From an uncultured Lachnospiraceae bacterium (GTDB taxonomy: Bacteria > Bacillota > Clostridia > Oscillospirales > CAG-272): a DNA stretch of 64,000 nt. The notes beneath the pieces are model-generated. The model was not told the DNA's origin and ran no database searches. It saw only the letters and a program-made list of their open reading frames with translations. Made by a program: the position numbers and the translations under genes. Within the stretch, counting starts at the first letter, position 1. Every line of letters begins with the position of its first letter. Positions 20,282 to 37,335 of this stretch are shown one piece after another. The DNA is taken from positions 1,344 to 65,343 of the forward strand of contig CAZLRV010000010.1 in NCBI GenBank assembly GCA_964562175.1, read 5' to 3'.

Positions 20282-21769
20282 ATGAGTGAACAAATAGAAA
20301 ACAACGAACAAGAACTGAGCGAGGTAGTGGCTATACGTCACGCAAAGCTTGACGCACTTAAAGAAAGCGGAAAAGACCCATTCGTTATAACAAAATACGA
20401 CGTTACCGCAAAATGCAAGCAGATAAAGGAAGAATTTGAGACTCTCGAAAATCAGACAGTAAGAATTGCCGGCAGAATGATGTCACGTCGTGACATGGGA
20501 AAGGCAAACTTTATAGATATTGCCGATTCCACCGGCATGGTTCAGGCGTATATAAAGATCGACGATATAGGACAAGAGCTTTTTGATGATTATAAAAAGT
20601 GGGATATCGGCGATATAATCGGTCTTGAGGGCTTCGTATTCAAAACACGTAGAGGCGAGATATCGGTGCATGCAAAGAATTTAGTGCTTCTTTCCAAGTC
20701 ACTGCTTCCCTTGCCCGAAAAGTGGCACGGTCTTAAGGACACGGACACACGTTACCGTCAGAGATATGTCGATCTGATAGTCAATGCCGAGGTTCGCAAT
20801 ACCTTTGTTTGCAGAAGCAAAATAATAGCCGAAATGAGGAATTACTTAAACGGAGAGGGCTTCTTGGAGGTTGAAACTCCCCTGCTTCACAATCAAGCGG
20901 GCGGTGCGGCTGCTCGTCCCTTCGTCACACACCACAATTCTCTCGATATAGATATGTATCTGCGTATAGCGCTTGAGCTTCATTTGAAGAGATTGATAGT
21001 CGGAGGCTTCGACAAGGTCTACGAAATAGGCAGAGTATTCCGTAACGAGGGCATGGACGCACGCCACAACCCCGAATTTACATTGATGGAGCTTTATCAA
21101 GCGTATACCGACTTTGAGGGAATGATGGATCTGAGTGAGAATCTTATAAGACATCTTGCAAAGACCGTCGTAGGCTCAACGCAGATAAAATTCGGAGAAT
21201 ATGATATAGACCTTGAAAAGCCGTTTGAAAGACTTTCCATGCTTGATGCCGTAAAGAAATATTCCGGCGTTGACTTCAATATTATAACCTCGCTTGAGCA
21301 AGCAAGACATGCTGCGAAGAATTTTCATATTGAATTTGAAGAGCGTCATAAGATCGGCGATATACTCAATCTGTTCTTTGAAGAATATGCCGAAAAGAAG
21401 CTTATTCAACCGACGTTTATCACACATCATCCCGTTGAAATATCACCTCTTGCAAAAAGATGCCCCACCTCACCGAATTATACCGAAAGATTTGAGCTTT
21501 TCATCGCAGGCTCGGAGCATGCCAACGCATTTTCGGAGCTTAACGACCCCATCGACCAACGTGCGAGATTTGAAGCCCAAGCGGCGCTCAAAGCACAGGG
21601 CGATGAAGAGGCTTGCGGCGTTGACGAAGATTTCCTCTGCGCCCTCGAATACGGTATGCCCCCCACAGGCGGTATCGGTATCGGCGTAGACCGCCTCGTT
21701 ATGCTCTTGACAAATAATACCTCCATCCGCGATGTTCTTCTCTTCCCGACAATGAAACCCATTGATTGA
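20282..21769 (+). CDS. lysS: lysine--tRNA ligase (class II)
   Basis: OB-fold N-terminus and class II motifs (FRNEGMDARHNPEFTLMELY, GIGIGVDRLVMLL). Confidence 0.95.
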   Translation: MSEQIENNEQELSEVVAIRHAKLDALKESGKDPFVITKYDVTAKCKQIKEEFETLENQTVRIAGRMMSRRDMGKANFIDIADSTGMVQAYIKIDDIGQELFDDYKKWDIGDIIGLEGFVFKTRRGEISVHAKNLVLLSKSLLPLPEKWHGLKDTDTRYRQRYVDLIVNAEVRNTFVCRSKIIAEMRNYLNGEGFLEVETPLLHNQAGGAAARPFVTHHNSLDIDMYLRIALELHLKRLIVGGFDKVYEIGRVFRNEGMDARHNPEFTLMELYQAYTDFEGMMDLSENLIRHLAKTVVGSTQIKFGEYDIDLEKPFERLSMLDAVKKYSGVDFNIITSLEQARHAAKNFHIEFEERHKIGDILNLFFEEYAEKKLIQPTFITHHPVEISPLAKRCPTSPNYTERFELFIAGSEHANAFSELNDPIDQRARFEAQAALKAQGDEEACGVDEDFLCALEYGMPPTGGIGIGVDRLVMLLTNNTSIRDVLLFPTMKPID

Positions 21770-21785
21770 CATATTATTTTTCAAA

Positions 21786-21831
21786 GCCGTAATTTGATAT
21801 CTTAAGATATCAAATTACGGCTTTCTTTTTT
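21786..21831 (+). terminator. lysS Rho-independent terminator
   Basis: Perfect 36-nt palindrome GCCGTAATTTGATATCTTAAGATATCAAATTACGGC followed by TTTCTTTTTT. Confidence 0.85.
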
Positions 21832-21909
21832 AAGCTGCACTTTAGGATACGAGCCATGGTATAAAAGTCATGGTTTTTTGTCGCTTTAATTGTTAATAAT
21901 GTTTTTACA

Positions 21910-21931
21910 ATATATATATATATATATATAT
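21910..21931. repeat. (AT)11 microsatellite
   Basis: Uninterrupted AT dinucleotide run read directly from the sequence. Confidence 0.95.
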
Positions 21932-21935
21932 GATG

Positions 21936-21944
21936 TGATATAAT
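21936..21944 (+). promoter_or_regulatory. extended -10 element TGaTATAAT (copy upstream of the island operon)
   Basis: Perfect TATAAT with an upstream TG, immediately after the (AT)n tract. An identical element lies at 37250-37258. Confidence 0.45.
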
Positions 21945-22299
21945 CACATATATAGGAATCAACGACAAGATAAATTCGAAAACATTCGATGCTCTCACGG
22001 GGTCAAAAGAACGTCAATCATACTCAAGCAGAAAGCTTCGGGGTTTCTTTAATGAAAAGTCAAAAATATTATAGAATATTTTGTCGAAACACATCGAGCT
22101 TCCGTTCAAACGACGGTGTACCATAATAGAGTTTGATAATACATTCAGAAACGAAACAGCTTCTTGTTTCAAATACATAGTATGGAATCCGTTTATTCAG
22201 AACTATACCTAAGCCGGCGTCGAAATTGTCTGCCGTAGCAGCATAATCTGCGGAGATCATCAATGTGAATATCATAAAATATTGAAGGAGGCTAAAAGG

Positions 22300-25152
22300 A
22301 TGATCAAAGGAAATAAAACGATAATTGACGATTTTACGCAGTATCTCTCGGAAAAAGTATCTCCTTCTCAGCTCTCGGGGTTATACTTCTGTTTTTCTGA
22401 AATCGAGAATTTCTGTTTAAAAGTCAAAGTATTACATAAACCTCTATTTGAAACGACAGATTTTGAGACGATCAAAAAAGTCCGTCAAACAATAGAACAG
22501 AACAAGATTTTCAGAGTTACGCATAAGCGTCAGTATAATAAAATTCTGATTGCTTGCAGGCAATATTATCTTTATATCAAAGAAGGTCATTTTCCTCAGG
22601 GAGAGAAACAATTCAAAGAGGAATGTAAGGATCGTTCGAAAAATATTGAAGCAGCATCGCAAAAAAACGCTGTCGGTAATGCTTCCGTTGAGACACAAAT
22701 TGTACGAACAAATCAAGACGAGAGGCTTTTGCAGAAATATCCGATCGTTTACAAGCAAGTATACAATGCACTTATAAATGCCGGTTGTTCATTATCAATT
22801 GAAATTATCTGCAATAAGATCGGGCGTATTGCTCGCTCTGCGGTGCTTGAAGAGATATTGGATAGTGTAAGTTGGGCAAAGTGGGTTGAGAACGAGTATT
22901 CTTTTTCAACTGAAATTGAGGAGCATCACATTGTCGCAAACGAGGTCAATGAGAAATCAATAGTAAACGAAGCAAAAACCGCTGTTACCTACGTAATTGA
23001 TTTCAACAGTTCCTTTGATCTTACTTACTCCAAGCCTATATCATTCACCTATTTTGGAGCAAAAAAAGAATTCGGTAACACATGGGTCGATCTTTATATT
23101 GCTTTTTTCGAGGCAATTCACGAGGATCATCATCATTTGTTGAAGCCCGGTATGTCATTCTCAAAAACAGGCACACGAGTTGAACTTGCGGAAAATACAA
23201 ATTACGATCTCATGATCGATCCAAAGCATATTCCCGGAACGAATCTAATGCTGGAAACCAATGTTAGTGCAAAAGATGTTGCTTCCAAAATCAAATACGT
23301 TCTTGAGCTGTGCGGCATTGACTTTGAAAATATTATAATCGGTTACATTAAAAAGAATGACGTTTCCCCCTCAAAGGAAGAGTGTCCCACTAATCCATCA
23401 AGAAGAGGAGCAAGCGGCTATAGCGCTGATTTTTACAATTTTCTATCAAAGAGATTAGGAATGGCAGAGGCAACTTGCCGTAGCTACGTTTCGGCTATCA
23501 ATAACTGTGAATCATTTGCAAAAGAGCATCACTTTGTGTCTTGGCAACTATACGGAGTACAACAAACCGCCGCAGAAGAAACTATTAAGCTCCTAATGGC
23601 AGATGAAGCTTTTCAAAAGTATACTGCGAGCCAACATAACAGATTTCGCACAGCACTTCAAAAATATCTGTTGTTTGTTGGAAGCGAAGCTGTAATTCAC
23701 AGCACTGCACCGGAACCTTATAGAACCGAAGTTGCCGCACCATATAGAAATGAAGAATATGAGATGATGCTCAGCCGTTTTTTTCAAAAAGGATTTCGAA
23801 TGGAATCTCCGCTTGAGATACGAAAATTCAGGCGATACTACTCGTCAACTTACGAAAAAGAGCTTCTCGATTCCGACGATGAAATAAGCTGCAATATTAG
23901 GAAGCTTGCAATTGAATACGACGGAAAAGCTTTCTTGCCCGTTGCAATGCTCAATGATGAAGTTAAAGCTCAACTGTATGCCTACATTGATTCCGCATTT
24001 GCCGAAGGAAAAAAAGCAATTTACTATCAGGCATTATACGCAGAGTTTGCAGAAACTTTTCTTGACCACCATATTCATAATGCAGATATGCTTAAAGCGT
24101 ATTTATCTGCCACAGCTAATGGGAAATTCTATGTTCAAAAGAATTTTATATCAAAGGAAGAAAATGTAACGATAGATCCGCTCTCGGAAATTCGCAAATG
24201 CCTCATTGAGTATGGTAGACCCGTAGAATACGAAGAATTATTTGAAGCGTTACCGCACATACCGCAGAAGAAAATCAAGTATCTATTAGCAAGCAATGGA
24301 GAGTTTATAAATAACGGACAAGGTACTTACTTTCATGAAAAAACAGTACGGCTTTCGGATGATGAGCTTGAAAGCATTGCCGAAATTATCAGCTGTACAA
24401 TAGAAGACAAGGACTACATGGGCGGCAATGAGCTCTATGATGCAATTAAGGCGAAGTACGGTTACATTATAGAAGATAATAAGCTGCTATCCATATATGG
24501 CTTCAGAGACGCTCTGAGCGCAAAACTCGGCGATAGATTTTCTTTTAAGGGAAATATTATCAGCCGCTACGGCAACGAGTTATCTATGGCTGATGTATTT
24601 GCAAAATACGCCCAAACGCACGACAGCTTCACATTGTCTGAACTTCAGGAACTTGCTTCTAATCTGGCAACAGTAATTTACTTTGATGCCGTATACGAAA
24701 ACAGCCTGAGAGTCAGCAAAGAGCAGTTTGTATCTAAAGAAATGGCGCAGTTTGCAATCTCCGAGACCGATGATGTGCTTGATCGCATTTGTCTTGGAAA
24801 ATATATTCCGATTTGTGAAGTTCAAAACTTCGGAATTTTCCCATATGGAGGATTTACTTGGAATAGTTATTTGCTGGAACACTATGTTGCAAGTTATAGC
24901 CATAAATACAAGCTTCTTCACAGAGGCTTCAGCGAAACGGAATGTGCGGGCGCAATAGTACGACGTTCCGCAAATATCAATAGCTTTGACGATTTAATTG
25001 TCGATATCTTAGTCAACGACCCGATCGAATTGAACCAATCCTCGGTACTTCAGTACTTGAGTGACAAAGGATATCTTGTGCGAAGAAGATATTCCGAAAT
25101 TGAATCGCTTATGATCAAAGCGAAGGCACAGAAACAGAGGAGGGGCGACTAA
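22300..25152 (+). CDS. large uncharacterised protein, first gene of the BREX-like operon
   Basis: 950-aa ORF (ATG at 22300 after GGAGG; the track start is TTG at 22282). No P-loop or other catalytic motif seen. It has an internal duplication of an ~84-aa module. Its stop lies 2 nt before brxP. Confidence 0.7.
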   Translation: MIKGNKTIIDDFTQYLSEKVSPSQLSGLYFCFSEIENFCLKVKVLHKPLFETTDFETIKKVRQTIEQNKIFRVTHKRQYNKILIACRQYYLYIKEGHFPQGEKQFKEECKDRSKNIEAASQKNAVGNASVETQIVRTNQDERLLQKYPIVYKQVYNALINAGCSLSIEIICNKIGRIARSAVLEEILDSVSWAKWVENEYSFSTEIEEHHIVANEVNEKSIVNEAKTAVTYVIDFNSSFDLTYSKPISFTYFGAKKEFGNTWVDLYIAFFEAIHEDHHHLLKPGMSFSKTGTRVELAENTNYDLMIDPKHIPGTNLMLETNVSAKDVASKIKYVLELCGIDFENIIIGYIKKNDVSPSKEECPTNPSRRGASGYSADFYNFLSKRLGMAEATCRSYVSAINNCESFAKEHHFVSWQLYGVQQTAAEETIKLLMADEAFQKYTASQHNRFRTALQKYLLFVGSEAVIHSTAPEPYRTEVAAPYRNEEYEMMLSRFFQKGFRMESPLEIRKFRRYYSSTYEKELLDSDDEISCNIRKLAIEYDGKAFLPVAMLNDEVKAQLYAYIDSAFAEGKKAIYYQALYAEFAETFLDHHIHNADMLKAYLSATANGKFYVQKNFISKEENVTIDPLSEIRKCLIEYGRPVEYEELFEALPHIPQKKIKYLLASNGEFINNGQGTYFHEKTVRLSDDELESIAEIISCTIEDKDYMGGNELYDAIKAKYGYIIEDNKLLSIYGFRDALSAKLGDRFSFKGNIISRYGNELSMADVFAKYAQTHDSFTLSELQELASNLATVIYFDAVYENSLRVSKEQFVSKEMAQFAISETDDVLDRICLGKYIPICEVQNFGIFPYGGFTWNSYLLEHYVASYSHKYKLLHRGFSETECAGAIVRRSANINSFDDLIVDILVNDPIELNQSSVLQYLSDKGYLVRRRYSEIESLMIKAKAQKQRRGD

Positions 25153-25154
25153 TT

Positions 25155-27515
25155 ATGTATTCATATAATTGGGACGCAGAAACGGGAGGTCTTCTGCTGA
25201 ATACTTCCCCACTGACATTCAGCAAAGAACCTCGTCCGGTATATTATAAAGAACTTGACATTCTCGGGTTTGATAAGTATTGGAATTACGCAAAAGATGA
25301 CACATATCCGTATATGTGGGCAGAAGCAAACAATTACTTTTACAGGGGGCGGCTTGTTGCAAAGACAAAAGGAGGCAGTCTGTATACTGCACCTGAAATC
25401 ATTATTCTTGAGGATGCGGAACCCGACGGGGAGCCGCTCCGCTTCGTTGACATACCGGCAATGGTGAGCAAGAACCGTGATTTGATCGAGAAGCTCGCTG
25501 CTGATACCATCAAAAAAATCTATAACATTTATATAGATTATGCAGGGAGGGTAGATGTTTTCTATGTTGCATTCAGCGGCGGTAAAGATAGTATAGTAGC
25601 ACTTGATCTTGTGCAACGAGCATTGCCGCACAACAGCTTCAAGGTGTTGTTTGGGGATACTGAAATGGAATTTCCCGACACATACGATATTGTTGACAAA
25701 ATCCGCAATTATTGTATTCAAGAAGATATCGAATTTTTAAGATCAAAGTGCGATTTCCCACCTGAGTACACATGGCACAAATTCGGTCCTCCTGCCCAAA
25801 CAATTCGCTGGTGCTGTAGTGTACATAAAACTGCGCCTCAAGTTATACTTCTTCGAGAACACATGAATAATCCTCACTTTCGAGGAATGGCCTTTACAGG
25901 AGTTCGGGGCGATGAAAGCGTGTCAAGAAGTGAGTACGAAGGAGTCAGTCAAGGAGAGAAAATCCGAGGACAATATAGTTGTCATCCGATTTTGGAGTGG
26001 AACTCGGCAGAATTGTTTGCCTATATTTATGATAGAAATCTTCTGATAAATGAAGCATATAAAAAAGGAAACAGTCGAGCGGGTTGTTTAGTTTGTCCGT
26101 TAGCAGCATCCAAAAATATGTATTTTAAAGAGCAAGCGTACAACACCGGGTGCAACGGGCATAGGTCAACGGCAACATTTAACGATATCATCTTGGAAAC
26201 CACTTCGAAAGAACTCTCAGCTCCGGAAGCTATAAAAGAATATATGGATATCGGAGGCTGGAAAGCAAGGCGAAGCGGCAAGGAACTTTCTTTTGCCAAA
26301 AGTTATTCAACTGAGGTCTTTGAAAAAGGTATTCTCACAATTCATTTAACACAAAAAAATACTGATTGGAAACAGTGGATAAAAACAATCGGTGATATCT
26401 CATTTTTAGAAAATGGAGATGTCGATGTACTTTATCGTGGAAAATTATATCACATTGAAATCGAAGAAAATGATAAGGAACTCACAGCAGTTGTAAACAT
26501 CGGTTCAAATACACAAAAGGATATTTATTTTGCATCGGAACTAAAGACTATCTTTAGGAAAACTGCTTATTGCATCGGTTGTAGAGTTTGTGAGGCAAAT
26601 TGTCCAAATGGATTTATAACCATGAAAAACGGGTGCGTTACTATAGATAATCGATGTGTTAAGTGCAAGAAATGTCATGATATATTTCATGGTTGCTTAG
26701 TTGCGAACTCGTTACGATTGCCGAAAGGAGATAATAAAATGGGAAGCATAGATAGATATGGAAATATGGGAATTGAACTCAATTGGGTGAAAGAGTATTT
26801 CAAAACAAAAGATGAATTTTGGAATTCCCCACACAGTTTAGGAACGAACAAGGTTAAATACCTTAAAAGTTTTCTTAATGATAGTGAGATCACCGTGAAA
26901 GGTAAGCTTTCCGATTTCGGCAGAGTCATTGATTACATCGGTATAGAAAATACAGATGCATGGGCATTGATGCTCTGCAATCTTGCCTATACATCGGAAT
27001 TTAATTGGTGGGTAAAGAATATCAAATTCTCGATTATATACACTCCAGACACAATTTATGCGATGCTCGATGATGCAATGAGCAAAAATTCAAAATCGCA
27101 CATTGTTTCCGCATATAAGAATATCTTGATTTCAAATCCACATTTTGGTAACGAAATAGGGCTTGGAACTTGCGAATACGAAATTAAAAACGAAAAGCGT
27201 TTATGGAACAGTGTGATTAGGCTCGAGTGGAAAACGCCTAATCCTCTCGTTATCCTCTACAGTCTTTTTAAATTTGCTGAGGCTTGTGGAAATTATCACC
27301 AGTTCACGCTCTCTCGGTTGCTGAATCACGATATTGAAAGTGACGGCATCAGCCCTACCGAGATCTTCGGACTTGATAGGAAGCAGATGGAAAAGCTTCT
27401 TAGCGGTCTTTCCATTAACTACCCTGATTTCATCAACGCAAGCTTTACGCTTGATCTTGATAACATTACGCTAAATTGCGAAAAGACATCGCAAGATGTT
27501 TTGAAGCTGTTCTAA
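25155..27515 (+). CDS. brxP: PAPS-reductase/PP-loop ATP pyrophosphatase family protein with ferredoxin-type Fe-S motif (BrxP-like, DndC/SspD-related)
   Basis: PP-loop VAFSGGKDSIVALDL, then RWCCSVHKTAP, GVRGDES, and CIGCRVCEANCPNG...CVKCKKC. The long C-terminal extension may be DUF4007-like (inference). Confidence 0.8.
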   Translation: MYSYNWDAETGGLLLNTSPLTFSKEPRPVYYKELDILGFDKYWNYAKDDTYPYMWAEANNYFYRGRLVAKTKGGSLYTAPEIIILEDAEPDGEPLRFVDIPAMVSKNRDLIEKLAADTIKKIYNIYIDYAGRVDVFYVAFSGGKDSIVALDLVQRALPHNSFKVLFGDTEMEFPDTYDIVDKIRNYCIQEDIEFLRSKCDFPPEYTWHKFGPPAQTIRWCCSVHKTAPQVILLREHMNNPHFRGMAFTGVRGDESVSRSEYEGVSQGEKIRGQYSCHPILEWNSAELFAYIYDRNLLINEAYKKGNSRAGCLVCPLAASKNMYFKEQAYNTGCNGHRSTATFNDIILETTSKELSAPEAIKEYMDIGGWKARRSGKELSFAKSYSTEVFEKGILTIHLTQKNTDWKQWIKTIGDISFLENGDVDVLYRGKLYHIEIEENDKELTAVVNIGSNTQKDIYFASELKTIFRKTAYCIGCRVCEANCPNGFITMKNGCVTIDNRCVKCKKCHDIFHGCLVANSLRLPKGDNKMGSIDRYGNMGIELNWVKEYFKTKDEFWNSPHSLGTNKVKYLKSFLNDSEITVKGKLSDFGRVIDYIGIENTDAWALMLCNLAYTSEFNWWVKNIKFSIIYTPDTIYAMLDDAMSKNSKSHIVSAYKNILISNPHFGNEIGLGTCEYEIKNEKRLWNSVIRLEWKTPNPLVILYSLFKFAEACGNYHQFTLSRLLNHDIESDGISPTEIFGLDRKQMEKLLSGLSINYPDFINASFTLDLDNITLNCEKTSQDVLKLF

Positions 27516-27528
27516 GGAGAAATATGCA

Positions 27529-30500
27529 ATGCCAATGTTAGAGAAATATCGAGATTATTTTGATATCGATCCTGATTATTTTCCTGCCGTAAACGAAGCA
27601 GTTATTACAAAGAATCCGAATGTGTGGAAGAAGTTTTTCCCGCACGAAACCTTTATTAAGCTCATCAAGAACACTGTCAGTGTACTTGAACGCAGACAAA
27701 AACAATGTTTGTGGGTCGAGGGTGCTTATGGTACCGGTAAATCTCATGCGGTTCACACGCTGAAAAAGCTTTTGGATTCGGACGATGCGGACACCCGCGA
27801 GTATTTTAAAAAATATGATCTTGATAATGACCTGCTCAATCGGTTTCAAGCAGTCAAATCCGGCGCTCGCATTCTTACCGTTCACCGCTATGGTTCCGCT
27901 ACCATCCATGGTGATCACAATCTCGTATTCGCAGTTCAGGAAAGCATAGAAAAAGCTCTTATCGATGCCGGCATTGAGAATAAGGGTGGCAACGCTCTGA
28001 AAAATGCCGCAATCGCTTGGCTTTCCGATAAGGATAACAAAAGCTACTTCAACGGACTTATCACCGGCACATATTCAGATATATTCGGCGGAGATAATGT
28101 TGATATGGTTATCGAAAAGCTTCGCACATTTTCCGGCGATGCATTGGCAAAAGCTATGGATAACATCTTCAGAGTCGCTGACGAGCGTCAAATAAAGGCA
28201 TTGTCTTTGAGTGTTACCGACCTCTGTAATTGGATCCGTGAGGTAATAAAAGCCAATAGCCTGAAGGCTATTGTGTTTATCTGGGATGAATTCACCGAGT
28301 ACTTTTATAACAATACTCGTAATCTGACAGGCTTCCAAGAACTGTGCGAAATCAGTGAAACAGATCCCTTCTATTTTGTATTGGTGACACATGTTACGCA
28401 GGGTTTATTCCATGAACACGATCGTGATTTTATTAAGTTGAACGGACGCTTCGTCAGCCCGCATAGCTTAATTAGTCTGCCTGAAAACATTGCATTTCAG
28501 CTCATGGGTGCGGCAATGGAGAAAAACCAAGATCCTGCCGTAGCAGAAGATTGGGAGATCGCCTTGGGAGATTTAACCGACAGGACTCAAAATTCTCGAA
28601 AGCAGGTTAAATCAGTTGCCCGTATTACGGACAAAGAAATGACGGATATTCTCCCGATACACCCCTATGCGGCATTGCTTTTGAAGCATATATCATCTGC
28701 ATTTGATTCCAATCAACGCAGCATGTTCGATTTCATAAAAAATGATCGTGACGACGAGATCAAGGGCTTTCGGTGGTTTATTGACACTTTCGGTCCGGAG
28801 GACGACAATCCTCTGCTTTCCGTCGATATGCTATGGGAATTCTTCTACGACAAGGGCAAAGAATATCTTGCGCATGATATCCGTTCGATTCTTGACTACT
28901 ATAACCGAACCGGTAATCAAAGGTTGGATTCCGACCAAAAGCGCGTGTTAAAGACCGTTCTGCTGTTGCAAGCTATTTCTCAATATGCGGGTGATTCGGT
29001 AGAACTGTTTATTCCCAACGAAAAGAATCTCAATAATGCGTTTGAGGGCACGGATATGGAGGGTTCAGCAGCTCGTTGTGCAGATCAGCTTGTCCGTGAT
29101 AAGATTCTGTTTTCCAAATCTTTGGGCGGTGGCAAATTCCAGTACGCCGCTTATAACAATGAGGGAGAAATTGATGTTACGCCTTTTGAGGAGCAGATCG
29201 ATAAAAAGAGTACATCTGCTTTGATCATTGAAGAACTTGCAGACAGAACCAGAATCGTTGACGCAATTACTTTGGGCGGGGCGTTGAAGCTTCGTTACGA
29301 GCTACGTTATGTATCGTCATCTGATTTTGATTCTGCGATCAAGCAGCTTCGTAATACCGAAGATAAATATGACAACAAAATCGTTGCGGTCGTTTGCTTT
29401 GCAAAGGATGATGCCGAGAGTGTTGTTATTGGCAAAAAGATCAGAGATGCGCTTGCCGATGGTTCCTATCACATGATCTTTATCGATGCATCCCGAACAC
29501 CACTCGGAGCTGATGGATATAGTACATACCGTCATGATATGGCTTTGTCCATGTCTCAGCAAGGCAAAGACGGAGCGCTGGCAACACAGTATGCAAATAA
29601 CGCCAAAGATTCCCTGAAGAAATGGAAAAACAGAATTACAGCCGGCGAATTTATTATTCACACTGCGGATAAACGTGACGGAGAGCGTGCTACCTCTCTC
29701 GATGCGCTGTACACAATTCTTGCCGAAGTGAATAAGAAAAAGTTTCCCGGATGCCTTGAAGGTGCGTACAATGTTATTGCAAATATGTATACGCCGAATA
29801 ATCTTAAGCAGGGTGTTGAGTGTGCATTTAACGAAAAAACCGCAGGTACTTTTCTTTCCGGAAGTCCCGCAACAAAGCTTGAAACCGCACTGGAAGGTGC
29901 ATGGAAGGTAGCAGAATACTGGAAGATAAAGCCACACCTTTTGATTTCCAAAATCAAGCTTTGTGTTGATGAAATTGTAACCGATGGGTTTAACAATGGC
30001 GGTCGTGTATCTATTAAGAAGATCTACGATGTACTGAAAACCGCTCCTTACGGATTTATGCCCTGCAATCTCACTGCATTTATTCTGGGATTTGTTCTCA
30101 AGGAGTATGCGACCGGTACGTACAGTTGGAGCGACGGCTTGACAAATGATGTTCTGAATGTGGTCAAGCTGAAGGAGATGATCGATGAGGTCATCCGACT
30201 TGAGATCACGCCTAATCCTCGCTACAAAGACAAATACATCGTTGCTATGACTCAGGAAGAAAAAGCTTTTAATGAAATTACTTCGACCGCATTCGGGATC
30301 CCTCTCAACATATGTACCTCCGTACCGAACACAAGAGAACGGATTCGCGGAAAAATGAAGGAATACTCATTCCCGATCTGGACAATCAAATATATCTTGG
30401 ATTCGGTCGTAACAAAAACCGATAAAGCCGTATTAAGTGAAATTATAGACCTTTTCTGCGGAATTGCAAATAGCAATAACATGGGATCATCTAAGACCGA

Positions 30501-31731
30501 CAGCGATATAGCCATGTCGATCGGAAAGCTTTCACTCGACAATATTGATGCGGCATCCGATTTGAAGAATATTCTGACAAAAGAAAATTGCACAAATGGC
30601 ATGATACGATACATTGCGTCTTTTGACAATGGGTCGTTGGTTAATTTGTCTGAGGAGATCGGCGACGGTGGTCAATATATCAATGTATTACGCAAGAAAT
30701 TTGATGCGGATGCCGCGACTTGGGTGTGGAATGTCGAAACCGTGCAGCAGAAGATTTGCGAGGTGATATTAGAATATGCTACTATTGTCGAGAGCAATAA
30801 AGTTATCTCCAAGAACATCTCCTATGATGCAACTATTAGAGAATGGTGTGATAAATGTGGATATATTCGCATTTCTTATGCCGCCGCAAAAAACTATCTG
30901 GATGAGCTTGGTCCTTTCCTGAGCCTTCTGCATAGCATGAAAAAAACCGGAACTTTGCCGGATTCTCAGAAAAAAGCCTTTTTGGAGTTGCTTGAAGCAA
31001 ACGCCGAGTTATTCCGTGACTTTTACAATAATCAAGTCAAAATGTTTAAGCGAGTGTGCGGATATTATTTGGACAAGCTATCCGACGAAGAAATAAAAGA
31101 AGTTTTCAGCACAATTCCCTCCGGCTCCTTTACTTACGAAAAAGCTGACTACCTAAACACCGTTGAAAGTAAAGTGAAGTCCTACAAGGAGGGACGAAAG
31201 AGCACGAAGCTGAAGAAGTTCTGGAAGGATAAGACAGGCACCGATTCGCCGCGTGAATGGTCCGAAAAGCATGAAATGCCGATACTTTGTTTAATTCCCG
31301 ACGATGAAGTAGCAAAAGCAAGAACGGCTTTCGGTGCAGTTAACCGTACAAAGCCTGACGAGGCATCCATAGACAAAGCAAATGAGTATTTTGCTTCCGC
31401 AAAATTCTTCGACTTGCTTGATGATGAAGCAGCACTCGACAGAGCGTTCAGAAACGGTGTCATAAAGAACTACTCGGTTATGCTTACAGACATACCGGCT
31501 GTAAAGGAATATCTTAATTCTCACATTGAAGCGGAGCCTTTTGATTGGTTCGGTCTTCCGGAAATCGAAAAGAAATTACACATGATGGCAGAAGCCAACT
31601 ACAATCAAGGCGGTTGCGAGCGTGCATTGGCAAAAATCGATGAAATGGATATTGCCGATGTTAAGAAATATCTAAAGGATTTGATCAAGGATAATATGAT
31701 CGTCGGCATGGAGATCATCAAAGAAAACTAA
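27529..31731 (+). CDS. brxC: BREX P-loop ATPase BrxC/PglY-like
   Basis: 1400 aa. Walker A EGAYGTGKSH near residue 65 and Walker B VFIWDEF. Positioned between brxP and pglZ. Confidence 0.75.
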   Translation: MPMLEKYRDYFDIDPDYFPAVNEAVITKNPNVWKKFFPHETFIKLIKNTVSVLERRQKQCLWVEGAYGTGKSHAVHTLKKLLDSDDADTREYFKKYDLDNDLLNRFQAVKSGARILTVHRYGSATIHGDHNLVFAVQESIEKALIDAGIENKGGNALKNAAIAWLSDKDNKSYFNGLITGTYSDIFGGDNVDMVIEKLRTFSGDALAKAMDNIFRVADERQIKALSLSVTDLCNWIREVIKANSLKAIVFIWDEFTEYFYNNTRNLTGFQELCEISETDPFYFVLVTHVTQGLFHEHDRDFIKLNGRFVSPHSLISLPENIAFQLMGAAMEKNQDPAVAEDWEIALGDLTDRTQNSRKQVKSVARITDKEMTDILPIHPYAALLLKHISSAFDSNQRSMFDFIKNDRDDEIKGFRWFIDTFGPEDDNPLLSVDMLWEFFYDKGKEYLAHDIRSILDYYNRTGNQRLDSDQKRVLKTVLLLQAISQYAGDSVELFIPNEKNLNNAFEGTDMEGSAARCADQLVRDKILFSKSLGGGKFQYAAYNNEGEIDVTPFEEQIDKKSTSALIIEELADRTRIVDAITLGGALKLRYELRYVSSSDFDSAIKQLRNTEDKYDNKIVAVVCFAKDDAESVVIGKKIRDALADGSYHMIFIDASRTPLGADGYSTYRHDMALSMSQQGKDGALATQYANNAKDSLKKWKNRITAGEFIIHTADKRDGERATSLDALYTILAEVNKKKFPGCLEGAYNVIANMYTPNNLKQGVECAFNEKTAGTFLSGSPATKLETALEGAWKVAEYWKIKPHLLISKIKLCVDEIVTDGFNNGGRVSIKKIYDVLKTAPYGFMPCNLTAFILGFVLKEYATGTYSWSDGLTNDVLNVVKLKEMIDEVIRLEITPNPRYKDKYIVAMTQEEKAFNEITSTAFGIPLNICTSVPNTRERIRGKMKEYSFPIWTIKYILDSVVTKTDKAVLSEIIDLFCGIANSNNMGSSKTDSDIAMSIGKLSLDNIDAASDLKNILTKENCTNGMIRYIASFDNGSLVNLSEEIGDGGQYINVLRKKFDADAATWVWNVETVQQKICEVILEYATIVESNKVISKNISYDATIREWCDKCGYIRISYAAAKNYLDELGPFLSLLHSMKKTGTLPDSQKKAFLELLEANAELFRDFYNNQVKMFKRVCGYYLDKLSDEEIKEVFSTIPSGSFTYEKADYLNTVESKVKSYKEGRKSTKLKKFWKDKTGTDSPREWSEKHEMPILCLIPDDEVAKARTAFGAVNRTKPDEASIDKANEYFASAKFFDLLDDEAALDRAFRNGVIKNYSVMLTDIPAVKEYLNSHIEAEPFDWFGLPEIEKKLHMMAEANYNQGGCERALAKIDEMDIADVKKYLKDLIKDNMIVGMEIIKEN

Positions 31732-31742
31732 GGAGGTACGAT

Positions 31743-34073
31743 ATGACCACCGATGAAGTTATAAAAAAGATAGATCGCTATCTGAGGAAGGATGATGTCG
31801 GATCTATTATAGTTGATGTACAAAACAAGACCGATATGGAGATAATTGTTACTCATTATCAATTACCTCAATACACCTTCATATATGCATCAGATCCTGA
31901 AATCTGTAATTATGACGAGTTCCCGACAATTGATAGGCTTCTTGAAAGAATTGCTAATGAGACTGACAGCTTTTTCATTAAAGAGCTTTCTACCTTTTAT
32001 ATGCTGAAAGGTGAAAAAGAGCTGTCTCGGGAATTAAAGGAGCTTCTGTCTATGAATATCGCCGGTCATGTTGTATTTCTTACTTATCAATGCAAAAATT
32101 ATCTTCAAGCACTTATCAAAAGCGATAAACGTCTGCAGGGACGAGTTTGTATTATTGACGGACAACAGTGTCTACGTCCAAAGCTTGTATTTACGATTGG
32201 CGGAGTTCGATCTTTGGGCAACGGCAAGACGGTCAAGGGGTTGCATAGCCTTGCCGGTGCCATTGAATGCGAGTCGGCAGACACGATCTATGTTGAAACA
32301 AAAAAGCTCAAGGCAAATTTTCCTTTATCACTATACACTGTTTTTGAACGACACAGTCCTTATGATATCTTGTGTGATTTAGACGAATTAACTTCCGTTC
32401 TTGACCGTAATGCCGGTTCGGAGGAAGAATGGGAGTACGCTCTTGCTGAGTTTCAGACATTTCACTCATGGAGTGATTTTCTAACTGACAAGTTTGGAAG
32501 CGTTCAAAGCCTTGGCAGTGCCATTTCAAACTATAAATTAAATTCTAACGATAAAACTTGGTGTTGGCTTTACTTTATTGGCTTGAAATTATTTGGCGCG
32601 ACTAATGACCGATACATGAACAACGCAGTATCTAAGGCTTTGTCGCCTTCTGATTTTGTACGTGGCATATATCGAGGCATTTTAGAATTAGAGATAAACG
32701 ACGATTCGTTTGAGACAGTATACGAAAGAAGAAAGGCATTATTGAATGCACTGGGTAATCCGATAAACGAGACCATCGATTTTTGCAAAATTGTACTCAG
32801 CAAAGGAAAGAATGCAATATGTTATCTTACTGACAATTCCATTCAGGAGAAGGAACTCGTATTTGAACTGCTTGAAAAATATGGAACGGATTATACAAAA
32901 GCAGAAATCCTCTCAATATTGAGGAAAGTATATCCGGCATTGTATTCATATTTACAGCCGTTTAGATTTAAAAATGAGCTTTTGGATGGTTATTTTCAGG
33001 ACTATAAGTATCAGAAGGTGATTAACAAAATCTTTCCGGAGTTTATGGCACTCGTTGAACAACAAGCAGTTACCAGGGACTACAATGTACTGCTTCCGCC
33101 TCGAAGTGCGTTGGTGGAAAATATTGACACAGCAAATACACAAACATATTTTACCGATGCAATGGGTGTGGAATTTCTTGGATTTATCATGGATAAATGC
33201 AAAGAACTGCAGCTAATGGCTAAGGTATCTGTGTGTAGAAGTGAATTACCGTCGATTACAAGCCGCAATAAGGATTTTTGGGAGGAGCTTTCCAACGCAA
33301 GTTATCCGATCATCACTGTTGATAAGCTTGATAAGATCAAACATCACGGAGAAGATGGATTTGACTACAGTCGCAAAGACAGAAAACTTCCGATCCATTT
33401 GATAAGAGAGCTTGAAATAATTGACGATCTTCTCAAAAAAATTAAGTCAGACCTTGCATCGGGTAAGTATGCTAAAGGGATACTCATCTCAGATCATGGA
33501 GCGAGCAGGCTCGCAGTGATCCACGAAACCGAAAATCTTTGGGAGATGGGCTCCGCCGGAAAACATTCCGGAAGATGTTGTCCCAAAAGCGAGATCGACA
33601 CAAGACCGAATAGTGCTGCCGATGCGGATGATTTCTGGGCATTGGCAAACTATGATCGTTTTAAAGGCAGTAGGAAAGCAAACGTTGAGGTTCACGGTGG
33701 TGCGACCTTAGAGGAAGTCGTAGTTCCGATCATTGAAATCACATACTTGAACAATTCCATTGAGGTTAAACTAATGCCGCTTGATGCTCCGGCAAGTTTC
33801 GTTGGAGCGCCGAAAATCAGCGTAAGTTTCCGAAAAAAGGCAGCCATTAAGATTTTCGCTACACGTAAATTGATGGATGTGTGCATTGAGATCGATGGTC
33901 ATACATATGATGCCGAGCCTATAGACGATAATTTCTATGTAGTAAAGGAAATGCCGGAGATCCGCAAAGCAAAGCAATATGCTGTTGATGTATACGCTTG
34001 CGGAAACAAGATTGCCGATTCTTTACCGCTGGTCGTTGAGAAAGAAAGCGGAAGCGAAAACAGCATACTCTAA
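31743..34073 (+). CDS. pglZ: PglZ domain (alkaline-phosphatase superfamily) protein
   Basis: Hallmarks of the PglZ domain: YFTDAMGVEFLG ... ILISDHGASRL ... HGGATLEEVVVPII. AGGAGG RBS. Confidence 0.85.
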   Translation: MTTDEVIKKIDRYLRKDDVGSIIVDVQNKTDMEIIVTHYQLPQYTFIYASDPEICNYDEFPTIDRLLERIANETDSFFIKELSTFYMLKGEKELSRELKELLSMNIAGHVVFLTYQCKNYLQALIKSDKRLQGRVCIIDGQQCLRPKLVFTIGGVRSLGNGKTVKGLHSLAGAIECESADTIYVETKKLKANFPLSLYTVFERHSPYDILCDLDELTSVLDRNAGSEEEWEYALAEFQTFHSWSDFLTDKFGSVQSLGSAISNYKLNSNDKTWCWLYFIGLKLFGATNDRYMNNAVSKALSPSDFVRGIYRGILELEINDDSFETVYERRKALLNALGNPINETIDFCKIVLSKGKNAICYLTDNSIQEKELVFELLEKYGTDYTKAEILSILRKVYPALYSYLQPFRFKNELLDGYFQDYKYQKVINKIFPEFMALVEQQAVTRDYNVLLPPRSALVENIDTANTQTYFTDAMGVEFLGFIMDKCKELQLMAKVSVCRSELPSITSRNKDFWEELSNASYPIITVDKLDKIKHHGEDGFDYSRKDRKLPIHLIRELEIIDDLLKKIKSDLASGKYAKGILISDHGASRLAVIHETENLWEMGSAGKHSGRCCPKSEIDTRPNSAADADDFWALANYDRFKGSRKANVEVHGGATLEEVVVPIIEITYLNNSIEVKLMPLDAPASFVGAPKISVSFRKKAAIKIFATRKLMDVCIEIDGHTYDAEPIDDNFYVVKEMPEIRKAKQYAVDVYACGNKIADSLPLVVEKESGSENSIL

Positions 34074-34085
34074 GGAGGAATAGCC

Positions 34086-35537
34086 GTGATTGAAAAATTG
34101 AGAAATTGTTTTGATGATATGGTTGTCTACAAAGACTTAAAGAAAAGTAATTTTTTCTCGGCTTTAGGACTGCCTTCGTTTTTGAGAGATTGGTTGATAA
34201 AGAAATTTTCCGATGATGATGGCAATCTTGACGTTGAGAAGCTTACCGACTTTATCCGTACATATCTTCCGAATAAGGAAGAATGGATAAGTATTAAAGA
34301 CAGGATCATCAACGACAACGAGAGGGTGAAGCTTCTCACAAGAATATCTGTTGATATTAGCATTAAAACGGGTGAAGTCGCATTTTCACTTCCCAATTTT
34401 GGGCTGACAAACAAGGAAACAATGATTGACAATTCCACCTGGGAGCAATATAGAGGTGAGCTTGCAAGCGGTCAAGAAATATGGGGAGTTATTGAGTTGG
34501 GTTATCGTCCGCCCGATGATACGGTGAAGCCTAAGATCCCGGGCAAGATCAAGCTTATCGGATTTACCAATTTTTGCCCATACACAATTGATTTAGACTA
34601 CTATAAAGATGTCCGAAATGAATTTACCACTTCCGAGTGGATCGATGTGCTTCTCGGTGCAATTGATTACAATGCATCGGGGTATGAAAACGAAGAACAA
34701 AAGCTTGCTATGCTGACGAGAATTCTGCCCTTTGCCGAGAAACGCCTTAACCTAATAGAGCTTGCACCCAAAGGAACGGGAAAATCCTATGTTTTCGGTC
34801 ATGTTAGTAAATACGGACTCCTCACCGACGGAGGAAAAGTAACACGTGCAAAAATGTTCTATGATGTTGCGCGAAAAACTCCCGGCTTTATTTCCGGGAA
34901 CGATTTTGTTGCCATTGACGAGGTGAAACTTGTTCAATTTGGCGATGTCAATGAGATGCGCTCCATTATGCAAGGATATATGGAGTACGGTCAATTCAAC
35001 ATTGGAGGATATGAAGGAAAATCTGATGCAGGTGTAATATTCCTCGGCAATATTGCTCAGGATAATATGGATGAGTACCGGAATATGTTCTCGGAGCTTC
35101 CTCCCCTATTTCAGGAAAGTGCATTGGTAGATAGAATACACGGCTTTATAAAAGGCTGGGATATTCCCAGGATGAACGATGATCTCAAGCTCTCCGGCTG
35201 GGCGTTAAATTCGGAATATTTTTGCACGATCCTGCATGAGCTACGTAGCGATATTTCTTACCGAACTATTGTTGATAGGGTGATTGAAGTCCCCGACAAG
35301 GCAGATACTCGTGATACCGAGGCGATAAAAAGAATCGCCACTGGTTATTTAAAGCTTTTGTTTCCCAATGTGAGAAGCGTGTACGATATAAAACCCAAAA
35401 CATTCCAACAATATTGCCTTCGTCCGGCGGTGCGTATGAGAAAGATCATTAAAAGGCAGCTTGGTATTTTGGACAAAGAATTCAAAGGTAAGGATGTTCC
35501 ATCTTTCGCGTTAAAGGAGATAACGGATGAAGAGTAA
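34086..35537 (+). CDS. brxL: BrxL-like AAA+ ATPase lacking the C-terminal Lon-protease domain
   Basis: Collinear with the BrxL N-terminal and ATPase regions (EWIDVLLGAIDY, ELAPKGTGKSYVF, VAIDEV, DRIHGFIKGWDIPRM), but it ends at 483 aa. GTG start after AGGAGG. Confidence 0.8.
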   Translation: MIEKLRNCFDDMVVYKDLKKSNFFSALGLPSFLRDWLIKKFSDDDGNLDVEKLTDFIRTYLPNKEEWISIKDRIINDNERVKLLTRISVDISIKTGEVAFSLPNFGLTNKETMIDNSTWEQYRGELASGQEIWGVIELGYRPPDDTVKPKIPGKIKLIGFTNFCPYTIDLDYYKDVRNEFTTSEWIDVLLGAIDYNASGYENEEQKLAMLTRILPFAEKRLNLIELAPKGTGKSYVFGHVSKYGLLTDGGKVTRAKMFYDVARKTPGFISGNDFVAIDEVKLVQFGDVNEMRSIMQGYMEYGQFNIGGYEGKSDAGVIFLGNIAQDNMDEYRNMFSELPPLFQESALVDRIHGFIKGWDIPRMNDDLKLSGWALNSEYFCTILHELRSDISYRTIVDRVIEVPDKADTRDTEAIKRIATGYLKLLFPNVRSVYDIKPKTFQQYCLRPAVRMRKIIKRQLGILDKEFKGKDVPSFALKEITDEE

Positions 35538-35724
35538 CTGCGTCATATGCGGAAAAGATCGCCTTAGTAAAGACACCATCGGCATTAACAGGAAATTGTT
35601 AGGAGAAGATATAGATAACTTTTACTGCCTTGACTGTCTTGCAGAGTATCTCGGTTGTACAGTCGATGAACTCCTTGATAAGATCGAGGAGTTCAAAGAA
35701 GAGGGCTGTAAGCTGTTTGCCTGA
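35527..35724 (+). CDS. 65-aa zinc-ribbon protein (CxxC ... CxxC)
   Basis: CVICGKD ... CLDCLAEY. The ATG overlaps the brxL stop by 11 nt, with an AAGGAG RBS inside brxL. Confidence 0.6.
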   Translation: MKSNCVICGKDRLSKDTIGINRKLLGEDIDNFYCLDCLAEYLGCTVDELLDKIEEFKEEGCKLFA

Positions 35725-35738
35725 TCATAAAGAGAAAA

Positions 35739-36863
35739 ATGAAAAGTATTGTTTATGCCGATAATGCGGCAACCACAAAATTGGATATTGATGCATTTGA
35801 GGCGATGAGGCCATACTTATTGGAAGAATACGGCAATGCTTCTCAGCCATACTCGTTTGCCCGAACAGCAAAAAATGCCTTGAAAGAATCCAGAGAAATC
35901 ATTGCGCAATGCATTGGAGCCGCTCCGGAAGAAATATACTTTACTTCAGGCGGAACGGAAAGCGATAATTGGGCAATCAAGGGTAGTGCTTTTTCCGACC
36001 CCTCGAAACGTGCGACGATCACATCAACAATTGAGCATCATGCAATTCTGAATGCCTGTGCAGACATTGAAAGATTAGGATATCCTGTAAGCTATTTGCC
36101 GGTAGATTCTTATGGTAAAGTTTCGCCTCAAGCACTTTCCGAATGGATTACCGACAATACAAGATTGGTATCGATTATGTTTGCAAACAATGAAATAGGA
36201 ACGATCCAAGAAATTCAAAAATTATGTAGCATTACACATTCGATGGGAGCAATCTTCCATACCGATGCAGTACAAGCCGTAGGTCATACCGATATCGATG
36301 TGAAATCACTTGGGATCGATATGCTGTCCGCATCCGCTCATAAGTTTAACGGTCCTAAAGGCATTGGTTTTCTGTATATACGGAGCGGAACGAAAATCAC
36401 TTCCTATATCAGCGGTGGCAAACAAGAATTTGGCATGAGGGCGGGGACGGAGAATGTAGCATCAATTGTTGGTATGGCGGTTGCTCTTGAGAAGAATCTG
36501 CGGTTTTTGAACGAGAACACGGCTCACATAAAAAAGCTTGAGAAAGATCTAATCGATGGATTACGCATGAAAAAGATTGATTTTGTACGAAATGGCGGTG
36601 ATATTGGAATCCCGGGCAATATAAGCTTATCGTTTGGCGGTTATGAGGGAGAAGCGTTATTGCACCGGCTCGATCTTATGGGAATTTCCGTATCGACCGG
36701 TTCTGCTTGCGACAGTCATAATACTCGGATATCCCATGTCCTTAGGGAAATTGGGCTTAGTAATATATTGGCTAAAGGAACAATTAGAATTTCCCTCGGC
36801 AAATCTAATACCGAGGATGACATAAAAGCGATCTTATCGGCACTCTCAAAAATCGTTACCTAA
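35739..36863 (+). CDS. cysteine desulfurase, class V aminotransferase (NifS/IscS/DndA/SspA-like)
   Basis: PLP lysine motif SASAHKFNGPKGIGFLY and catalytic loop STGSACDS. Size 374 aa. Confidence 0.88.
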   Translation: MKSIVYADNAATTKLDIDAFEAMRPYLLEEYGNASQPYSFARTAKNALKESREIIAQCIGAAPEEIYFTSGGTESDNWAIKGSAFSDPSKRATITSTIEHHAILNACADIERLGYPVSYLPVDSYGKVSPQALSEWITDNTRLVSIMFANNEIGTIQEIQKLCSITHSMGAIFHTDAVQAVGHTDIDVKSLGIDMLSASAHKFNGPKGIGFLYIRSGTKITSYISGGKQEFGMRAGTENVASIVGMAVALEKNLRFLNENTAHIKKLEKDLIDGLRMKKIDFVRNGGDIGIPGNISLSFGGYEGEALLHRLDLMGISVSTGSACDSHNTRISHVLREIGLSNILAKGTIRISLGKSNTEDDIKAILSALSKIVT

Positions 36864-37056: not shown

Positions 37057-37096
37057 ACAGCAATAAAACTCCTTGATTGACATATTATTTTTCAAA

Positions 37097-37142
37097 GTCG
37101 TAATTTGATATCTTAAGATATCGAATTACGGCTTTCTTTTTT
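37097..37142 (+). terminator. terminator copy at the island right end (likely terminates the BREX-like operon)
   Basis: GTCGTAATTTGATATCTTAAGATATCGAATTACGGC plus TTTCTTTTTT. The two substitutions relative to the lysS copy both become G-U pairs. Confidence 0.75.
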
Positions 37143-37214
37143 AAGCTGGACTTTTAGGATATGGGCCATGATTAAAAGTCATGGCTTTTTGTTATTTTCA
37201 ATGTTAATAAAATG

Positions 37215-37246
<32 letters not shown>

Positions 37247-37249
37247 TCG

Positions 37250-37258
37250 TGATATAAT
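37250..37258 (+). promoter_or_regulatory. extended -10 element TGaTATAAT upstream of the DUF4234 gene
   Basis: Perfect TATAAT with TG, about 78 nt upstream of the ATG at 37336. Confidence 0.5.
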
Positions 37259-37335
37259 TGCATACATAAGAATTTACGACAAGATAAATTCGATATTGTT
37301 CGACACATCTTGCCGCAAAAAACAAGGTGAAAAGT

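Follow-up and report, generated by a model that had tools for sequence, protein, structure and literature searches.

A candidate DNA-binding accessory subunit encoded directly upstream of brxP in one clade of type 4 BREX systems

Gene content of the locus

A 64,000 nt stretch of DNA from an uncultured Lachnospiraceae bacterium (GenBank assembly GCA_964562175.1, contig CAZLRV010000010.1, positions 1,344–65,343; the whole stretch is termed 'the window' below) contains an operon of the bacteriophage exclusion (BREX) type. The subject of this analysis is the first gene of that operon, which encodes a protein of 950 amino acids (aa) and is given the working name gene X. It lies in an open reading frame (ORF) spanning window positions 22282–25152 on the plus strand; a GGAGG motif at 22287–22291 precedes an ATG at 22300, which is the likely start codon and yields the 950 aa product. 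The genes recognised in the operon are listed below, with the database matches that identify them (PAPS, 3′-phosphoadenosine-5′-phosphosulfate; Fe-S, iron-sulfur).

22300–25152, plus strand: gene X (ORF and translation, GGAGG upstream, 198 close homologues)
25155–27515, plus strand: brxP, a PAPS reductase with Fe-S and a C-terminal SspB/DUF4007-like region (PADLOC BrxP, 7e-234; Pfam PAPS_reduct, 4e-27)
27529–31731, plus strand: brxC/pglY ATPase (PADLOC BrxC, 8e-280)
31743–34073, plus strand: type 4 pglZ (Pfam DUF7864, DUF7863 and DUF7862; PADLOC PglZ, 1.6e-90)
34086–35537, plus strand: brxL (Pfam BrxL_N and BrxL_ATPase; PADLOC, 1.6e-212)
35527–35724, plus strand: 65-aa cysteine-rich ORF (CxxC...CxxC), overlapping the end of brxL and lying just before the cysteine desulfurase gene
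35739–36863, plus strand: cysteine desulfurase (DndA/SspA/NifS-like), which provides the sulfur for phosphorothioation (PADLOC DndA, 2.3e-130; NCBIfam NifS, 3.9e-134)

The stop codon of gene X is located 2 nt before the brxP ATG, and gaps of 2–14 nt separate gene X, brxP, brxC, pglZ and brxL. Since brxP, brxC, a type 4 pglZ and brxL are present, together and collinear (25155–35537), the operon can be assigned on sequence grounds to type 4 BREX, in agreement with a preliminary description of this DNA, which had also rightly named gene X as the largest non-ATPase ORF of the operon (ORF list and Pfam). Pfam and PADLOC scans found no methyltransferase gene (pglX) in the operon, and a weak SspB-like match was detected by PADLOC in the C-terminal part of the window BrxP.

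Type 4 BREX systems write phosphorothioate (PT) into DNA; in Bacteroides salyersiae, BrxP, BrxC and a cysteine desulfurase suffice for this modification, PT motifs vary among type 4 systems, and a swap of BrxC alone failed to transfer activity (PMC12914056). The desulfurase is described as a sixth type 4 component, BrxP incorporates a BrxA-like module (DUF4007) by fusion, and an inactive STAND domain resembling BrxB is fused to PglZ, in which fast-evolving DNA-binding modules have been argued to be invader-recognition modules (PMC12839542). The premise of the preliminary description that type 4 systems lack BrxA and BrxB is superseded by these fusions. The system treated in the two papers, both from 2026, consists of BrxP (with DUF4007), BrxC, PglZ, BrxL and the cysteine desulfurase (PMC12914056, PMC12839542). 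The window resembles it in having all four hallmark genes, the desulfurase gene and a small zinc-finger ORF in collinear order; for the latter, the 65-aa cysteine-rich ORF fits the 'small zinc-finger protein' said to accompany the type 4 desulfurase (PMC12839542). It differs in that its clade carries a fifth large gene, gene X, which is not listed as a component in the main text of either paper. Further, the names of four genomes that contain gene X do not occur in the supplements of PMC12839542, and the terms SeqA, recombinase and Xer do not appear in its available text.

A duplicated helical module in the gene X protein

The preliminary description had pointed to two similar segments within gene X, at nt 22330–22578 and 23428–23679. 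Both read as quoted there, and they correspond to residues 11–93 and 377–460. These segments belong to two of the five parts that make up the window protein, which are, in order (AF2, AlphaFold2; pLDDT, predicted local distance difference test):

22321–22581, plus strand: module 1 (aa 8–94), a putative diverged copy of an integrase-type SAM-like (core-binding) domain with five helices (AF2 helices; hhalign to the module 2 class)
22711–22905, plus strand: winged-helix-like domain (aa 138–202) with the predicted order helix-helix-helix-helix-strand-strand, an optional cassette in the family (AF2, pLDDT about 70–84)
22981–23364, plus strand: alpha/beta domain D3 (aa 228–355), tentatively SeqA C-terminal-like (Foldseek; Pfam SeqA in one relative; hhalign)
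23413–23679, plus strand: module 2 (aa 372–460), a predicted phage-integrase N-terminal SAM-like (core-binding) domain (Pfam PF02899; weak XerC/XerD N-terminal matches)
23737–25149, plus strand: C-terminal core (aa 480–950), with about five winged-helix-like units (aa 485–812) and a conserved tail (conservation profile, AF2, Foldseek)

When the two modules of the window protein alone were compared, their likeness was marginal (BLASTP, E = 0.027, 20% identity over 96 columns), and an hhalign comparison of module slices from 30 close homologues gave P = 0.017. Deep profiles were decisive. hhalign of the diverse module classes (A3 versus A2) aligned 94 columns with a probability of 97.2% and E = 4.3e-11, and a second run of the two classes gave E = 1.3e-11. 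The hidden Markov models (HMMs) of the modules gave median cross-class scores of 20–23 bits, and no reversed or shuffled control scored above 8.3 bits. Structural likeness, judged by predicted secondary-structure patterns, was consistent with this: both modules were modelled as all-helical, with five helices each (residues 8–19, 22–41, 55–67, 69–74 and 79–94 in module 1; 372–385, 390–409, 422–434, 436–444 and 448–460 in module 2), at a pLDDT of about 80–95 in a domain-level AF2 model. The hhalign alignment pairs E36 and F38 of module 1 with E404 and F406 of module 2. Both module types recur across the family, in up to four tandem copies.

The pairwise and shallow-profile values, taken by themselves, would leave room for a chance likeness between helical segments of low information content. 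This explanation was rejected on the strength of the deep profiles, the shuffled controls, the identical predicted helix topology and the tandem recurrence among relatives, and its probability is negligible. The module duplication is judged, from profiles and models, to be real and ancient, which bears out the earlier proposal of a reused helical domain. The motif given for it was correct at its ends (DF-x2-[YF]L... and A-x3-Y-x-L-[YF]-[IV]), which the profile alignment places in register, whereas its middle, I-x-N-x-C, is out of register, module 2 reading I-N-N-C.

Module 2 of the window matched Pfam PF02899 over profile positions 3–76 of 83, with E = 0.0014 and 19.3 bits (the gathering score is 22.3). 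In a set of 30 diverse module 2 copies, PF02899 was matched by 17 (best E = 4.6e-7), PF13102 by 10 and PF13495 by four; these families are Phage_int_SAM_1, Phage_int_SAM_5 and Phage_int_SAM_4, respectively. Some relatives already bear integrase SAM-like Pfam domains in precomputed annotation. No Pfam match was obtained for module 1. Module 2 is best classed, by these profile matches, as an integrase-type N-terminal SAM-like (core-binding) domain, and module 1 as its diverged paralogue. In recombinases, the N-terminal SAM-like domain binds the core DNA site.

The likeness to the N-terminal SAM-like domain of tyrosine recombinases (PF02899, PF13102 and PF13495; XerC/XerD and phage integrases) lies in the near-full-length match of module 2 to these profiles, in its signature F..YL...S..T...Y...I..F...(N)RF..AL.KY..F, and in its being modelled as a small helical bundle. 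The lone recombinase structure among the listed Foldseek matches to module 2 was Tre/loxLTR, a weak match at rank 17 (E = 5.1). The gene X protein differs from recombinases in several respects. No catalytic domain follows the core-binding module: PF00589 (the Phage_integrase catalytic domain, R-K-H-R-H/W-Y) was absent from the window protein and from the sets of 30 and 36 relatives scanned, even at E ≤ 1–10. There are two to four or more core-binding domains in each protein, module 1 is too diverged for Pfam to detect, and module 2 of the window stays under the gathering threshold.

The remaining domains of the gene X protein

The full-length AF2 model of the gene X protein had a mean pLDDT of 72 and a predicted template modelling score (pTM) of 0.35, and a two-domain model reached a pLDDT of 84. 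For D3, SeqA-DNA structures (PDB 1LRR and 3FMT) were the top domain-sized Foldseek matches in two independent models, with a probability of 0.82–0.99, a root-mean-square deviation of 2.5–4.1 Å over 89–96 columns, template modelling (TM) scores by target of 0.41–0.57, and E = 0.45–1.3. An hhalign comparison of the D3 profile with Escherichia coli SeqA, the sequence of which was checked against the PDB, gave P = 0.006 over 27 columns, in a PKH(V/I)PGT...(E/I)TN stretch. In the SeqA-DNA structures, the PKH(V/I)PGT...TN stretch lies in the region touching hemimethylated GATC. Pfam SeqA (PF03925) was matched by one of 26 diverse members of the family (E = 0.002). No match of the window D3 to PF03925 was found at E ≤ 10, and a profile search of PDB sequences with D3 did not return SeqA. 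D3 is tentatively considered SeqA-C-like. Unlike SeqA, the gene X protein lacks the SeqA N-terminal oligomerisation domain, and its host system marks DNA with phosphorothioate, while the mark of SeqA is Dam methylation.

In the C-terminal core, residues 485–812 were modelled by AF2 as about five repeated winged-helix-like units with the order helix-helix-helix-strand-strand. A Foldseek search with the whole model returned UFL1/DDRGK1 (7e-4) and SelB (2.8e-3), followed by Dcc1 and ESCRT-II, all of them tandem winged-helix proteins. These scaffolds (for SelB, the C-terminal winged helices WH1-4) were the best overall Foldseek matches to the core, at E values from 7e-4 to 3e-2, and they share with it serial winged helices, which serve nucleic-acid or protein docking. 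The identity to them is 10–15%, without sequence relationship, the TM-scores are 0.09–0.33 and their biology is unrelated, so the likeness is one of architecture only. No Pfam family covers the ∼470-residue core; a match to RE_LlaJI in one of 36 members (E about 0.01) was rejected as noise. The stretch formed by residues 817–893 (window positions 24748–24978) is among the most conserved of the protein and was modelled at a pLDDT below 50. It contains the motif WN..LLEHYV...LLH...EC.GAIV.R, with the conserved residues W854, N855, L858, L859, E860, H861, Y862, V863, H874, E881, C882, G884, A885, I886 and V887, and may form an interface that depends on a binding partner, or else an active site that escaped recognition.

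The statement in the preliminary description that no enzyme motif could be recognised in gene X held: searches of Pfam, NCBIfam, PADLOC and PHROGs found no catalytic domain in its product, and weak integrase N-terminal matches alone. When profiles of the whole family, of each module class and of D3 were run against PDB sequences, nothing significant was returned (best match, a XerC-like N-terminus at E = 0.079). A Foldseek query of the viral structures in BFVD with D3 plus module 2 likewise gave no significant match. The window protein had no match in PADLOC-DB v2 at E ≤ 0.01, including the models for BrxA, BrxB, BrxR, DndB, DndE, SspB and SspE, and 30 relatives searched at E ≤ 1 gave no meaningful recurrent matches. 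Methylase_S or HsdS-like matches were absent from the gene X protein and from the scanned relatives. HsdS contains two target-recognition domains and helical spacers; in the gene X protein, by contrast, the repeated element is the helical module itself, with a winged helix and an alpha/beta domain in between. BrxA and the BrxA-like DUF4007 region of BrxP/SspB (a helix-turn-helix [HTH] and two winged helices) are, like the gene X protein, BREX-associated, enzyme-free and composed of serial HTH/winged-helix modules (PMC12839542). The gene X protein is about five times larger than BrxA, however, contains core-binding and SeqA-like cassettes, and shows no match to the PADLOC models for BrxA and SspB.

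The gene X family and the decayed 5′ end of the window copy

Gene X had been described as an orphan, which proved wrong: an exhaustive profile search identified 2,906 representative clusters (at 50% identity) with E ≤ 1e-3, and 1,283 with E ≤ 1e-30. All the named copies are annotated as 'hypothetical protein', the other cluster members bear no source name, and Pfam, PADLOC and PHROG hold no whole-protein model for the family. The mark of the family is the ∼470-aa core, with the motifs WN..LLEHYV, FSFKGNIIS and YFHE; the window core scored 886 bits against the family HMM. A domain-HMM census of 269 proteins distinguished 77 architectures, with the core in every one, the presence or copy number of an N-terminal domain (N-domain), the core-binding modules, the winged helix and D3 being variable. 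The commonest layout (59 proteins) was N-domain, core-binding module, winged helix, D3, core-binding module and core, and the window copy corresponds to this layout minus the N-domain. Conservation along gene X is high in module 1, drops to a low level in the indel-rich residues 101–375, is moderate across module 2 and becomes very high from residue 476 onwards. Protein lengths in the family range from 950 to 1,860 aa. Some relatives add Sel1 repeats, and one (P0183), by reading of its sequence, would add RpoA-CTD-like and sigma-region-4-like segments.

Most homologues begin ∼109 aa earlier than the window protein, with a conserved N-domain (W..E..LL...FRNxNGI..Q..ME...KPA.KLF...YQKLLKEA). Its W..E..LL...FRNxNG pattern may resemble an N-terminal domain of some HNH restriction endonucleases. 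Immediately upstream of the window gene X, what appears to be a remnant of this domain was found:

22130–22299, plus strand: frameshifted relic of the ∼109-aa N-terminal domain (relic peptides in three frames; DNA alignment to an intact gene)

The relic peptides FRNE, FQIHSMES, PKPASKL and EYHKILKEAKRMIKG are spread over three reading frames, and a DNA alignment to an intact gene (that of locus L152) showed indels of 1, 4 and 1 nt, similarity being lost farther upstream. The window gene X appears to have lost its N-terminal domain, and the annotated start to be secondary. Two other database sequences are also 950 aa long, one identical to the window protein and the other a member of its cluster at ≥90% identity, and the N-domain is naturally missing in other lineages; the 5′-truncated protein is therefore probably functional.

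Association of gene X with brxP, brxC and pglZ

Gene X was found directly 5′ of brxP-brxC-pglZ in all of 31 loci inspected (26 species genomes and five metagenome contigs) and, down to 35% identity, in 76 of the 77 metagenome loci with room downstream. It also preceded these genes in three of three further cases, two from a subfamily with a core 23–25% identical (P0162 and P0262) and one from Enterocloster clostridioformis (P0326). The same defence context was found essentially throughout, and the distance from the gene X stop codon to the brxP start was 2–14 nt in about 100 loci. A reverse sample was seeded with BrxP and consisted of loci on viral contigs, 13 of which contained a full-length BrxP at ≥40% identity. 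A strong gene X match ended right before brxP in 11 of these 13; of the exceptions, L119 had just a 50-bit match at that position, and in L123 the match lay about 3.4 kb upstream of brxP. Two other loci in this sample, with a BrxP at ∼30% identity, lacked gene X. Since gene X accompanies BrxP at ≥40% identity and is absent at ∼30%, it is a hallmark of a single clade within type 4 BREX rather than of the type as a whole. Gut Clostridia predominate among the hosts, some of the assemblies being from Phascolarctobacterium, spirochaetes and Bacteroidales, and several of the islands adjoin integrases or prophage replication modules.

In other loci, small genes were observed upstream of gene X. The gene directly upstream, with a product of 69–80 aa, encodes an XRE-type HTH protein (HTH_26) in L001–L003 and L116 and a PC4-like single-stranded DNA-binding protein (with a 1-nt gap) in L005, L114 and L152; L005 also contains a WYL regulator. 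The window has no small upstream regulator gene, because its 5′ region has decayed.

The distances among gene X cores correlated with those among BrxC proteins (Mantel r = 0.80). In BrxP, over ∼70 loci, the N-terminal 320 residues are conserved (73–90% mean identity per 40-residue block, 61–66% at aa 161–240), and the C-terminal half (aa 321–720), which includes the BrxA-like DUF4007 DNA-binding region, is the most variable part of the operon. It falls into discrete types that are independent of both BrxC and gene X, the partial Mantel correlation with the variable half of gene X being r = 0.07. This suggests cassette exchange of the DNA-binding half of BrxP, which would make it a candidate determinant of the PT motif.

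Proposed role of gene X and alternative explanations

Every recognisable part of the gene X protein falls in a nucleic-acid-binding fold class, and the term 'DNA-recognition subunit' used in the preliminary description is therefore reasonable. We propose, with a probability of about 0.55, that the product of gene X serves one large, PT-making clade of type 4 BREX systems as a multi-domain accessory subunit that binds DNA and is not an enzyme. The C-terminal ∼470 aa would dock the protein onto the central BREX machinery, with BrxC and/or BrxP as the most likely partners, because gene X ends 2 nt short of the brxP start codon and its core diverges in step with BrxC. The N-terminal half would act as a variable string of small DNA-reading cassettes, which might hold the complex on DNA or read one of its features (its modification state, its structure or its being foreign) and thereby direct or gate modification by BrxP-BrxC, restriction by PglZ/BrxL, or both. 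Gene X could in this manner contribute to the discrimination of self from foreign DNA. Judged from sequences and models, gene X appears to encode a widespread and previously undescribed accessory subunit of an already known defence system, with a function that can be tested directly. PT writing by type 4 BREX was shown just recently (PMC12914056), and gene X is a concrete candidate for its DNA-recognition or gating step; the family also exposes a gap in the annotation tools for defence systems.

Several observations weigh against this proposal. DNA binding by the gene X protein is deduced from fold classes only; module 2 of the window falls below the PF02899 gathering threshold (19.3 versus 22.3 bits), the Foldseek E-values linking D3 to SeqA (0.45–1.3) are non-significant and the corresponding hhalign P is only 0.006. 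With a pTM of 0.35, the model leaves the packing of the domains unsettled, and the most conserved stretch (aa 817–893), which is poorly modelled, could conceal an activity. The correlation between the core and BrxC (r = 0.80) may simply reflect shared descent. Finally, gene X is not universally required: two distant type 4 loci lack it, and PT formation in B. salyersiae needs only BrxP, BrxC and the desulfurase (PMC12914056).

More specific roles were also considered. The gene X protein might be an invader sensor or gatekeeper, the shuffling cassettes of which detect foreign DNA or a phage protein, the core then switching on restriction by PglZ/BrxL. Cassette copy-number variation beside an invariant core (77 architectures in 269 proteins) is a pattern common in defence sensors, the SeqA-like domain could read a modification state, and the argument that the fast-evolving modules of PglZ recognise invaders (PMC12839542) agrees with it. 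That same work, however, already proposes the BrxB-like inactive STAND domain of PglZ for sensing, the likeness to SeqA is tentative and the cassettes are generic DNA binders; such a role is conceivable, and doubtful. Somewhat less probable, and unlikely in its own right, is that gene X encodes a sequence-specificity subunit, with cassettes that would dictate which PT motif BrxP-BrxC modify, in the manner of HsdS in type I enzymes. It would accord with a variable N-terminal DNA-binding array next to an invariant core, with the position of gene X abutting brxP, and with the reports that PT motifs differ among type 4 systems and that a BrxC swap alone is insufficient (PMC12914056). The covariation test left it unsupported: variation within the operon peaks in BrxP aa 321–720, and since the variable halves of BrxP and gene X swap independently (partial Mantel r = 0.07), a paired specificity subunit is argued against. 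This role is further weakened because BrxP and BrxC suffice for PT in B. salyersiae (PMC12914056). In addition, gene X varies by gain and loss of cassettes rather than by divergence of a single target-recognition domain, and no Methylase_S or HsdS-like match was seen. The specificity part of the role first suggested for gene X is for these reasons not retained.

A further, quite unlikely possibility is that gene X encodes a 'reader' for phosphorothioate BREX, in which SeqA-like and core-binding cassettes would sense fully modified, hemimodified or unmodified DNA, much as SeqA reads hemimethylated GATC, with the core relaying the result to BrxC, PglZ and BrxL. If so, gene X would supply the self/non-self discriminator that type 4 BREX is missing, and it would represent a new class of sensor for DNA-backbone modification with no relationship to the sulfur-binding domains known from ScoMcrA and SspE. 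A BrxR-like transcriptional regulator of the BREX operon is improbable. Gene X opens the operon and its product is rich in HTH-type domains, as might be expected of a regulator, but the role is weakened by the size of its product (950–1,860 aa), by the 2–14 nt spacing to brxP in about 100 loci, and by the separate small XRE-type HTH, WYL or PC4 genes just upstream in many loci; the ∼470-aa core is, moreover, far more conserved than is usual for regulators. A purely regulatory function, which had been among those first suggested, is not favoured on this account. Very improbable indeed is that gene X is not a BREX component but a tyrosine recombinase, domesticated or inactive, or what is left of a mobile element. 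Integrase-type N-terminal domains are present in it, and the islands are often mobile, with integrase genes or prophage replication modules nearby and, in the window, a 240-nt direct repeat flanking the island; yet none of the scanned members has the Phage_integrase catalytic domain, the core is modelled as winged helices and not as a recombinase fold, and gene X travels with brxP whatever the surrounding element.

The BREX island and other observations

Internal deletions that join a truncated brxP to brxC or brxL were seen in four metagenome contigs (L038, L049, L062 and L096), which are decaying BREX-4 islands. Fourteen viral contigs from IMG/VR (L129–L140, L143 and L145) contain a gene that matches BrxP residues 1–520 only, at ∼44% identity. 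It corresponds to the PAPS reductase and Fe-S part, BrxC and PglZ are not encoded alongside, and it may represent a phage-borne enzyme of sulfur metabolism or DNA modification, or a counter-defence function.

In the window, the island is flanked by housekeeping genes, with greA and lysS upstream, and genes for a DUF4234 protein and a polysaccharide deacetylase, together with comEC, downstream. The G+C content falls across 22–38 kb. A direct repeat of ∼240 nt, present at 21750–21989 and 37061–37303 (82–94% identity, spacing 15,311 nt), encloses the entire BREX island. Its left copy consists of the lysS 3′ end, a terminator and an (AT)n run, and the repeat looks like an att-type duplication arising from insertion of the island at the end of lysS.

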